Shown here: piece by piece, positions 20,979-58,256 of the stretch
Position numbering within the stretch: position 1 is the first letter of the stretch
How the letters are laid out: every line of letters starts with the position of its first letter
Virus record (IMG/VR): IMGVR_UViG_3300027963_003275
Location: 1-64,000 of that record
DNA: 64,000 bases
Reading direction: 5' to 3' (one strand)
DNA from: a virus
Lineage: Duplodnaviria > Caudoviricetes
Program-made: the position numbers and the translations under genes
The notes under the pieces: generated by a model
Told to the model about the DNA's origin: nothing
Database searches by the model: none
The model's input: only the letters and a program-made list of their open reading frames with translations

Positions 20979-21389
20979 ATGTTTAAATTTGGAAAACAAA
21001 AACCAGATATAAAACAATATGCAATCATAGGAATTGTATTGAGTTCTATTATTGCAACACTTTCCCAATGTAGTGGTATTAAGCAAGATAGTATTTGGGA
21101 CTTACTTGACGAAGTTCAAAGAAGATATTTCCCACAAACTATTCTCAACGACTTTGTGATTAAAGATCCAGAGAAACTTGATAGAAGAATCAATCGTGAT
21201 GTTGATGCAGCAATCGCAGAGTATGAACGATTGACAGGAGATGATGGAAAGGTTAAAATACCTTCACCACGATACTCAGAGAAACCACAAGACGGGTCTT
21301 ATGCCCAATCAGTTCTTGGAGGTGAAATGAGATTGTGTGCTCCATGGGTTGATGACTGCCCAAAAGATGCGAAATTAATTCAGCGGTAG
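20979..21389 (+). CDS. Hypothetical membrane-anchored protein
   Basis: TM YAIIGIVLSSIIATLSQC; 3' end overlaps tRNA-Gly. Confidence 0.7.
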   Translation: MFKFGKQKPDIKQYAIIGIVLSSIIATLSQCSGIKQDSIWDLLDEVQRRYFPQTILNDFVIKDPEKLDRRINRDVDAAIAEYERLTGDDGKVKIPSPRYSEKPQDGSYAQSVLGGEMRLCAPWVDDCPKDAKLIQR

Positions 21390-21440
21390 AATGTCTGCCT
21401 TCCAAGCAGAACGTCAGGAGTTCGAATCTCCTATTTCGCT
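21369..21440 (+). tRNA. tRNA-Gly(TCC), CCA not encoded
   Basis: GCGAAAT/ATTTCGC acceptor, TCTGC-CTTCCAA-GCAGA anticodon arm, AGGAG-TTCGAAT-CTCCT T arm. Confidence 0.93.
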
Positions 21441-23629: not shown

Positions 23630-23701
23630 GGGAGTATAGCTTAATGGTCAGAGCGGCCTGCTTATAACGGGTTAGTCTGGGTTCAACTCCCAGTATTCCC
23701 A
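23630..23701 (+). tRNA. tRNA-Ile(TAT)
   Basis: GGGAGTA/TATTCCC acceptor, GCCTG-CTTATAA-CGGGT anticodon arm, CTGGG-TTCAACT-CCCAG T arm. Confidence 0.92.
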
Positions 23702-48891: not shown

Positions 48892-49002
48892 GATGTTAAG
48901 GAATCAACACATTTCTTAATCTTCTGCAACCGAGACCATCAGAAGTAAAGCATCTCTCATACCTGCACTGGAGGGTGTCGTGGAGTATACTGTACTTGTT
49001 CA
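48891..49002 (+). ncRNA. PhotoRC-II-like leader RNA, copy 1 (apparently truncated)
   Basis: TTAAGGAAT/ATTTCTTAA hairpin, CCGAGACC...TCTCTCATACC...GAGGG pattern; similar to the psbA leader. Confidence 0.55.
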
Positions 49003-50246: not shown

Positions 50247-50390
50247 GATGTTAAGGGATGTAACGTTTCTTAATCTTGCCGCACCAGGAATAGGCAAGTA
50301 AAATCCGTCCTTATACCTACGCAGGAGGGTTGCGTAGGAATACTTTTACCGTTCAGCACCTCCTGAACTATTACCTACCCCTTTAACGAA
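50246..50390 (+). ncRNA. PhotoRC-II-like psbA leader RNA
   Basis: Hairpins CTTGCC/GGCAAG, CCTACGCA/TGCGTAGG, GTTCAG/CTGAAC; GGAGG/CCTCC pseudoknot potential. Confidence 0.65.
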
Positions 50391-57790: not shown

Positions 57791-57833
57791 AAGTAGCAGC
57801 ACGATACAAAAAAAATATCTGTTGCTACTTTTT
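57789..57833 (+). terminator. Terminator-like inverted repeat
   Basis: AAAAGTAGCAGC...GTTGCTACTTTT. Confidence 0.5.
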
Positions 57834-57857
57834 CATGTTTATGCTAATATATACAGT

Positions 57858-58073
57858 ACGTTCAACCCATTTTGGGTCGGAAGTAAGCCGACGCGGAACG
57901 GATCGTTCATCTATGGAAACACTCTTACTCAGTTGTCTTCAGGCACAATTGATTATTGGAAGAGTTATGAAGGCAAATATGCCTCCACAAACTCGTAATG
58001 ATTTAATTTGGGAAATCAAAAAGGTTACTCCCAAAAGGTGTAAAATAGACGCAAACGCCGACTGAAGGAACGC
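57858..58073 (+). ncRNA. Tandem glnA (glutamine-I) riboswitch; second aptamer has an ORF in its P2 loop
   Basis: Aptamer 1 CGTTCA-ACCCA/TGGGT-CGGAAGTAAG...GGAACG; aptamer 2 CGTTCATCTAT...ATAGACGCAAAC...CTGAAGGAACG. Confidence 0.8.
57913..58065 (+). CDS. 50-aa ORF nested in riboswitch aptamer 2 (METLLLSCLQAQLII...)
   Basis: ATG at P2 5' strand, TGA inside the CTGAAGGAACG strand. Confidence 0.6.
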   Translation: METLLLSCLQAQLIIGRVMKANMPPQTRNDLIWEIKKVTPKRCKIDANAD

Positions 58074-58105
58074 TCTTTAATCTAAACAACTAAGGAGAAA
58101 ACCTA

Positions 58106-58213
58106 ATGTCACAAGTAAAAACTAAAAACAACTGGCAGCTTGTTTTAATCAAGCAACAAAAAGAAAAAGAACAACGCAAACACCAAGCAAAACTTGCAAT
58201 GGCAATGCGTTAA
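58106..58213 (+). CDS. 35-aa basic peptide downstream of the riboswitch (possible DUF4278/GS-inactivating-factor analogue)
   Basis: AAGGAG RBS; MSQVKTKNNWQLVLIKQQKEKEQRKHQAKLAMAMR. Confidence 0.65.
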   Translation: MSQVKTKNNWQLVLIKQQKEKEQRKHQAKLAMAMR

Positions 58214-58219
58214 TAATCT

Positions 58220-58256
58220 AGGAGGGATTGATTCCCTCCTTTTTTTATGCTAGAAT
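58220..58256 (+). terminator. Terminator overlapping a sigma70-like promoter
   Basis: AGGAGGGA-ttgat-TCCCTCCT + T-run; TTGATT-17-TAGAAT. Confidence 0.75.

Follow-up and report, generated by a model that had tools for sequence, protein, structure and literature searches.

Comparison with relatives among cyanophages shows the leader at 57859-58097 of the DNA analyzed here to be, as far as its sequence can tell, a composite type-1 glutamine riboswitch in which one core is folded inside the other. According to the joint reading that we regard as on balance probable, a hairpin of the inner core, P2i, closes around a real gene of 50 codons (ORF-B), and the nested riboswitch would exert reciprocal, glutamine-dependent control over this gene and the one downstream. 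Riboswitch aptamers are viewed as RNAs that do not code, and tandem glutamine aptamers are pictured as beads on a string; in this leader the nucleotides of the sensor core double as the start region, codons and stop codon of a conserved gene, and the two cores interlock. The window, i.e., the whole 64,000-nucleotide stretch under analysis, is part of a 74.8-kb IMG/VR virus record (IMGVR_UViG_3300027963_003275, positions 1 to 64,000) from a freshwater cyanophage, and its relatives are T4-like cyanophages. Elsewhere it contains two PhotoRC-II RNAs (48907-48996 and 50261-50351, with 43.3 and 49.5 bits in Rfam) and two tRNA genes (21369-21440 and 23630-23701).

Architecture of the composite leader

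Inspection of the sequence places CGTTC at 57859-57863 and 57904-57908, GAACG at 57896-57900 and 58068-58072, TCTAT at 57910-57914 and ATAGA at 58045-58049; every motif named in an earlier note on this DNA lies where that note had put it, including the ATG at 57913 and the TGA at 58063. In the nested fold, all of whose elements are on the plus strand, the outer core would be built from a P1 helix (CGUUC, 57859-57863, with GAACG, 58068-58072), a hairpin P2o that is compact in the window (ACCC AUUUU GGGU, 57865-57877), and an E-loop formed by the junction CGGAAGUA (57878-57885) and GAAG (58064-58067). The junction fits the RF01739 consensus, as does the segment 58064-58072, which joins GAAG to the 3' strand of outer P1 and corresponds to the consensus GAAGGAACG. 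A long-range linchpin pair, G57880-C58073, would complete this core. The shared helix P3, which pairs AGCCGACG (57886-57893) with CGCCGACU (58056-58063), is predicted to open into a circularly permuted inner core, consisting of a P1 hairpin closed by a GAU loop (GAACG-GAU-CGUUC, 57896-57908, with strands 57896-57900 and 57904-57908), the hairpin P2i (UCUAU, 57910-57914, with AUAGA, 58045-58049) and the inner junction CGCAAA (58050-58055), which is kept in compact and ORF-bearing forms alike.

For the comparison IMG/VR was scanned twice, first with the 3' core as anchor and then with the central GGAACGGATCGTTCA, the second time without selection on the 3' core. Each scan recovered at least 119 loci; pooled with named phages, these gave 142 unique elements among the matches listed. 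Four cultured freshwater or estuarine phages match the window: S-SRM01, DSL-LC02 and DSL-LC03 have the whole region in common with it, insert included, and S-CREM1 carries an annotated 99-nt glnA riboswitch without the insert, the 3' half of which is identical to that of the window and which is given 44.0 bits in Table 4 of PMC9964418. The marine phages P-SSM2, S-SSM7 and P-TIM40 display the same layout as the window, and S-PM2 has the compact form. When genome contigs were scanned with a 15-mer, only L328 among the 120 matches listed had the flanking core motifs, the rest being chance matches; this result has no bearing on host genomes. The nearest CGTTCA upstream of the 3' core lies either 16-48 or 145-160 nt away (121 loci with upstream sequence, among the matches listed), and in the long class of the 3'-core sample this distance is 145, 148, 151, 154 or 160 nt among the matches listed.

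Covariation in P3 and at the linchpin points to two cores that are nested rather than placed side by side. P3 pairs the stretch that follows GUA in module 1 with the stretch that precedes (G/A)AAGG in module 2; among the matches listed, its pair 8 is UA in 84 cases, GC in 28 and AU in 4, and its pair 1 is AU in 119, GC in 8 and GU in 7. Two positions of the helix are conserved A-C mismatches, and some lineages have a short AGUCG/CGACU helix instead of the 8-bp P3. In an alignment of 51 compact elements the P3 pair 46-91 is GC in 19, UA in 18 and AU in 3, with none of 40 unpaired. Across these 51 elements the whole nested structure is 93.8% paired, as against 84.5% after shuffling (0 of 500 shuffles as high), and moving the partners by 1-3 columns leaves at most 51% paired. 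For the linchpin, base 3 of the module 1 motif CG[N]AAGUA was compared with the base after the last GGAACG: among the matches listed the two are G and C in 73 elements and C and G in 69, with no exception in 142 unique elements, although these states largely follow two clades and the counts may not represent as many independent changes. The hairpins that follow CGUUCA, corresponding to the first hairpin of the Rfam model, also covary in the 51 compact elements: all four pairs of P2o have changed on both sides, with 99.5% paired, as have seven of eight pairs in P2i. The P1 strands, by contrast with these helices, bear against an unqualified nested reading: both strand pairs are present, but both helices are invariant (in 51 of 51 compact relatives), so their partners are not directly assignable by covariation and follow from the topology of the nested fold.

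The earlier note had instead envisaged two aptamers side by side, the second with a P1 of its own between 57904 and 58068 and with the ORF in its P2. Since the four P1 strands are identical in sequence, such pairing is possible. Nearest-neighbour energies do not favour the nested fold either, being -54.1 kcal/mol for it and slightly better, -55.8 kcal/mol, for the side-by-side arrangement, with an unconstrained optimum of -62.5 kcal/mol; and each unit scores by itself against the Rfam model, module 1 with 34.2 bits and compact second modules with 33-38 bits. This arrangement is nevertheless quite unlikely. It leaves the covarying helix 57886-57893/58056-58063 and the G57880-C58073 covariation unexplained, and once P3 has formed the side-by-side P1 pairs would be pseudoknotted. 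Additionally, there is no GAAG strand in module 1 and no GGAAGUA in module 2, so that the full consensus, with both E-loop strands present together, is matched by the outer combination only.

Searching Rfam at its gathering threshold identified no glutamine family in the window. A search of the window with the Rfam glnA model, which the earlier note had suggested, had a divided outcome: module 1 (57857-57904) reaches 34.2 bits against RF01739 (E 1e-5), just below the gathering score of 35 bits, and a search with E-values returned nothing across the insert or for the split module. The low score of the window can be put down to the 130-nt insert and the nesting; natural compact relatives, used in place of a window freed of its insert, score 33-46 bits, and in one of them (L049) the best Rfam alignment, at 46 bits, joins the 5' half of module 1 to the 3' half of module 2. 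Standard Rfam scans will miss elements of this kind. A covariance model of our own, built from the 51 compact relatives, was set aside: it matched 57857-57950 with 43.8 bits, but, being unable to span the 140-nt insert, placed its 3' half on unrelated sequence close by, and on the whole 74.8-kb record it gave the same single match.

The closest described counterpart is the type-1 glutamine riboswitch of the Synechocystis gifB/IF17 leader, with which the window element shares the core sequences CGUUCA, CGGAAGUA and GAAGGAACG, a three-helix junction, a long-range G-C linchpin, an anti-Shine-Dalgarno (anti-SD) segment right after the linchpin C and, in the relatives of the window, a small DUF4278-type gene downstream. 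The passage of PMC6212724 that cites Ren et al. gives the linchpin of the solved aptamer as G23-C60, to which the covarying pair G57880-C58073 corresponds. Unlike that leader, the window element appears to have two cores, one inside the other, with the outer P3 leading into a circularly permuted inner core, the hairpin of which holds a gene whose codons are core nucleotides too; and unlike an ordinary type-1 glnA RNA, it is missed at the Rfam gathering threshold.

Upstream of the element, a weak sigma-70-like promoter (TTGCTA, a 17-nt spacer and TAATAT; 57822-57850) was recognized by eye about 8 nt 5' of it; a consensus scan did not flag it (8 of 12 matches), and relatives have TATAAT 9-12 nt before CGTTCA. 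After the upstream gene, at 57793-57833, come a long hairpin rich in A and U (GUAGCAGCACGAUAC...UAUCUGUUGCUAC) and then a T run; this segment overlaps the weak -35 region of the promoter and is spanned by the RNA-library contig X18 (57767-58132).

The gene within the inner hairpin

ORF-B runs from the ATG at 57913-57915 to the TGA at 58063-58065 and encodes 50 residues (METLLLSCLQAQ...KRCKIDANAD), forming a two-Cys microprotein; the list of open reading frames gives a longer frame, 57835-58065, around it. The AU of its AUG lies within the 5' strand of P2i, codons 45-46 contain the 3' strand, U58063 is at once the last base of P3 and the first of the stop codon, and the UGA falls within CUGAAGGAACG. 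These observations confirm what the earlier note had read from the letters, namely a start codon in the 5' strand of the stem and a stop codon in the conserved 3' core strand, and the conservation of ORF and stem described below agrees with its view of a protein-coding ORF enclosed by a hairpin of a glutamine-riboswitch core.

Several lines of comparative evidence indicate that ORF-B is a real, conserved gene. A peptide of the same type, 50-53 residues long, is found in 47 of 48 unique long forms of the 3'-core sample, the exception (L077) having 20 residues, and an ORF is present in all 67 unique long hairpins of the pooled set, both among the matches listed. Its start lies 3-6 nt into the 5' strand of the stem in 66 of these 67 (among the matches listed) and 15 nt into it, preceded by UAGGAGG, in the remaining one; in L161 both the Shine-Dalgarno sequence (SD, UAGGAGG) and the AUG are inside the stem. 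Among the same listed matches, 61 of 67 ORFs stop at the core U(G/A)A, the GGAACG following exactly 4 nt later; of the others, three continue past this stop and three end 21-22 nt earlier. Freshwater-type hairpins are 140, 143, 146 or 149 nt long, in steps that are multiples of 3. Outside the RNA overlap dN/dS is 0.20 (27 sequences), and values of 0.28 and 0.20 (13 and 7 sequences) come from the sample obtained without selection on the 3' core, so that the dN/dS check proposed in the earlier note yields 0.20-0.28 across cyanophage relatives and speaks for conservation of the ORF, with synonymous sites saturated. C8, C43 and the terminal D50 are invariant in 59 aligned peptides. Synonymous divergence drops to 0.22 in the last 8 codons, as against 0.67-0.70 in the rest of ORF-B, which is the signature expected if these nucleotides are both codons and RNA core.

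An alternative that takes the insert not for a gene but for a domain of the RNA, or for an element excised from it in the manner of an intron, draws on the observation that the region folds somewhat better than shuffled sequence (z -2.45). It was rejected as highly improbable, being contradicted by the coding signature, i.e., a dN/dS of 0.2-0.28 at saturation of the synonymous sites, indels that are multiples of 3 and two invariant cysteines. Further, RNA-library contigs from four studies, read within their covered parts and away from contig ends, which do not amount to proof of transcription, show the unspliced form, with the ORF contiguous with the core and no joints, and this argues against intron-like removal of the insert.

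The product of ORF-B is modeled by AlphaFold2 as a two-helix hairpin (pLDDT 84.7) and weakly matches phrog_504, a family of unknown function (E 6.2e-4, 20.4 bits, residues 6-49). Searches with it found no Pfam family, no PDB match with E < 2 in Foldseek and no usable match in the ESM Atlas, and its homologues fall into 11 clusters that are unnamed or oddly named, with no informative name among them. Existing annotation treats the nested genes as ordinary hypothetical proteins in S-SRM01, DSL-LC02, P-SSM2, S-SSM7 and P-TIM40.

The stem around the gene is likewise maintained. At least 5 consecutive pairs form in 60 of 67 unique ORF-bearing stems, and the mean over these 67 is 6.42 consecutive pairs, whereas shuffling of the partners gives 3.97 and none of 2000 shuffles reached the observed mean, both among the matches listed. 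The sequences differ by lineage while the ends stay complementary, e.g., UCUAU/AUAGA in the window, UCUCAU/AUGGGA in P-SSM2, UCCUAUGA/UCAUGGGA in S-SSM7 and GAUUAUGGU/ACCAUAAUC in L201. The TCTAT/ATAGA pairing put forward in the earlier note hence stands up to the covariation check. Two observations count against the favored reading at this point: in the window P2i is a weak, AU-rich stem of 5 bp, and an additional inner helix, 57919-57923/58037-58041, departs little from expectation (3.92 versus 3.61 pairs, 7 of 2000 shuffles).

Translation, folding and the downstream gene

Downstream of the core, the anti-SD CUCUUUA (58073-58079), which begins with linchpin C58073, pairs in the minimum free energy fold with the SD sequence UAAGGAG (58091-58097) to give a 7-bp hairpin. 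This SD belongs to a 35-aa ORF (58106-58213), the gene expected to be under control of the switch, which is followed by an intrinsic terminator with an 8-pair stem and a T run, detected by a terminator scan (58220-58249). The anti-SD/SD hairpin is present in most tails of the freshwater clade, and variant tails keep a hairpin on the SD (among the matches listed); compact forms without a nested ORF have the same tail and SD hairpin. In tails of the marine clade (e.g., L124:890-930) GGAACGG is followed by a GGGG...CCC hairpin and then by an SD, GGAG, which appears free in simple folds, and the expression platform may accordingly differ between the freshwater and marine clades.

The 35-aa ORF itself matched no Pfam family, PF14105 (DUF4278) included. 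In relatives the peptide at this position is DUF4278-like (phrog_5049, E 6e-12), and those with YRG motifs approach PF14105 (E 1.3e-3, 19.5 bits) while staying below its 25.3 cut-off. The window peptide is without the YRG motifs seen in the DUF4278-like peptides of most relatives; it resembles the C-terminal half of the 48-aa protein of S-CREM1 and the peptides of L059 and L065, and in L077 a YRG-type and a window-type peptide are fused in one 86-aa ORF.

The positions of start and stop codon suggest how translation of ORF-B and folding of the sensor might compete. A 30S subunit on AUG 57913 would need inner P1 and P2i to be open. The last 7 codons correspond to the inner junction and the 3' strand of P3, with the UGA beginning at the last P3 base, and elongation through codons 44-50 would be expected to unwind both P2i and P3 together with the inner junction. 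On arrival at UGA 58063, a ribosome would cover or unwind the 3' strand of outer P1 and reach the anti-SD (58073-58079), which otherwise hides the SD of the downstream gene. With the start in the 5' strand of the stem and the stop in the core, translation and folding are geometrically exclusive; to this extent the mutual exclusion foreseen in the earlier note is borne out, and we infer that one RNA molecule cannot at the same time be folded with glutamine bound and be translated across the nested gene. In the gifB leader glutamine turns translation on, and in the parts of their study that bear on this platform Klahn et al. 2018 postulate that it melts an anti-SD helix beside the linchpin C (PMC6212724); the anti-SD/SD tail of the window fits the platform so postulated. 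On these grounds, reciprocal glutamine-dependent control of two small proteins by one sensor seems, by analogy, the most likely outcome: glutamine would stabilize the fold, closing the nested start and freeing the downstream SD as proposed for gifB, such that the nested protein would be made from unfolded RNA and the downstream protein from folded RNA. If the competition holds, the phage would read host nitrogen status and choose between small proteins with one short mRNA, a few hundred nucleotides from 57859 to the terminator ending at 58249, and nature would here offer an example of a ligand sensor gated by the passage of ribosomes. The coupling of ribosome traffic to sensing and the switch between two peptides that the earlier note suggested are conjectural.

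A rather unlikely alternative is that ORF-B is a passenger, i.e., a microprotein "moron" cassette lodged in a tolerant loop and translated constitutively or in a first co-transcriptional round; the riboswitch would then act on the downstream gene in its ordinary way, and ORF-B would be outside glutamine control. It accords with the finding that close relatives display every one of the four possible combinations of empty and filled hairpins (53, 33, 11 and 12 of 121 loci, among the matches listed), that the same ORF family sits in either hairpin (P2o in L242, P2i in L234) and that a homing-endonuclease-like gene occupies a third loop, patterns that look like cassette traffic through conserved core halves. 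Against it stands that in 66 of 67 cases the start codon begins no more than 3-6 nt into the closing stem, that 61 of 67 ORFs stop in the core (both among the matches listed) and that covariation maintains the stem, so that the overlap with the sensor is systematic; to initiate there, a ribosome must open the inner core.

The geometry also lends itself to a coupling akin to that of leader peptides, in which a ribosome ending at UGA 58063 would unwind outer P1 and part of the anti-SD, activating the downstream gene, while the main role of glutamine would be to gate initiation at the AUG of ORF-B. Ribosome footprints extend about 12 nt in the 3' direction from the A-site codon, and the stop codon precedes the anti-SD by 10 nt, at a position fixed in 61 of 67 elements among the matches listed. 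Opening of the anti-SD by the terminating ribosome could allow nested translation to switch the downstream gene on at any glutamine level; this, the chief difficulty for the favored reading, argues against clean reciprocal control and for such coupling. Yet this explanation, too, is unlikely, since compact forms without the nested ORF keep the tail and the SD hairpin, implying a platform that works without coupling, and the direction published for gifB is on with glutamine (PMC6212724, as far as its gifB results go). Reciprocal control by a nested, gene-bearing sensor hence stays the reading we favor.

Known systems and hairpin loops as possible gene slots

Group I introns carry homing-endonuclease ORFs in peripheral loops and resemble the present leader as structured, functional RNAs with an ORF in a hairpin loop, in which translation and folding can conflict; in L021 and L051 the riboswitch loop even holds a homing-endonuclease-like ORF. 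They differ in that no splicing is apparent here, the RNA contigs having no joints, and in that the usual nested gene is a 50-aa two-Cys microprotein whose 3' end consists of conserved core nucleotides and thus extends beyond the loop. A short ORF within a regulatory RNA, with the position of the ribosome deciding the fold, is likewise a feature of leader-peptide attenuators and of RNAs with a dual function, e.g., RNAIII/hld and SgrS/SgrT. Unlike these, the leader would sense its signal through a ligand-binding aptamer and not by ribosome stalling, and its ORF is inside the aptamer, not beside it.

Weinberg et al. describe tandem glnA RNAs and link them to more digital regulation, an arrangement comparable to this one in having two glutamine-aptamer-like units in one leader for one gene; the covariation seen here, however, supports a nested fold with exchanged strands, and the passage concerned mentions no ORF. 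In the portion of Klahn et al. 2018 dealing with such genes, single type-1 and type-2 switches precede DUF4278 genes (PMC6212724), and PMC12379486 mentions glutamine riboswitches only inside deletions. A literature search over the full text of articles found neither an ORF within a glutamine aptamer nor a nested double aptamer.

Turning to the relatives, P2o holds an ORF of its own in 37 unique elements (59-69 aa, MTKALLLLAWVPLLS...C; among the matches listed), with the AUG in the stem, as in L012:235-441, L046, L053, L193 and L230. In 12 of these 37 (among the matches listed) its stop is the UAA of the core AAGUAAG, and some elements have ORFs in both hairpins. One microprotein family, with the pattern ML.L....C.D..WL...........C., is found in either hairpin (P2o in L242, P2i in L234 and L189), which suggests that microprotein cassettes move between the two slots. 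A broader reading, possible although short of probable, takes the loops of the nested double riboswitch as slots for two-Cys microprotein genes, occasionally for a homing endonuclease, under opposite glutamine control. As parts of this same tentative reading, genes with buried starts might be made at low host glutamine or before folding and the IF17-like peptide at high glutamine, and the conserved core halves could act as portable homology by which cassettes move between hairpins and between cyanophages.

The 167-aa homing-endonuclease-like ORF of L021 (509-1012, minus strand; phrog_10820 with E 2e-9, phrog_314 with E 3e-4) lies in the loop of inner P1, reads through the 3' strand CGUUCA of that helix and a compact hairpin, and stops at the core UGA; the flank covered is too short to show module 1 upstream. 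L051 displays the same arrangement, and in L013 a 44-nt remnant of the 3' end of such an ORF forms the spacer between the two P1 strands.
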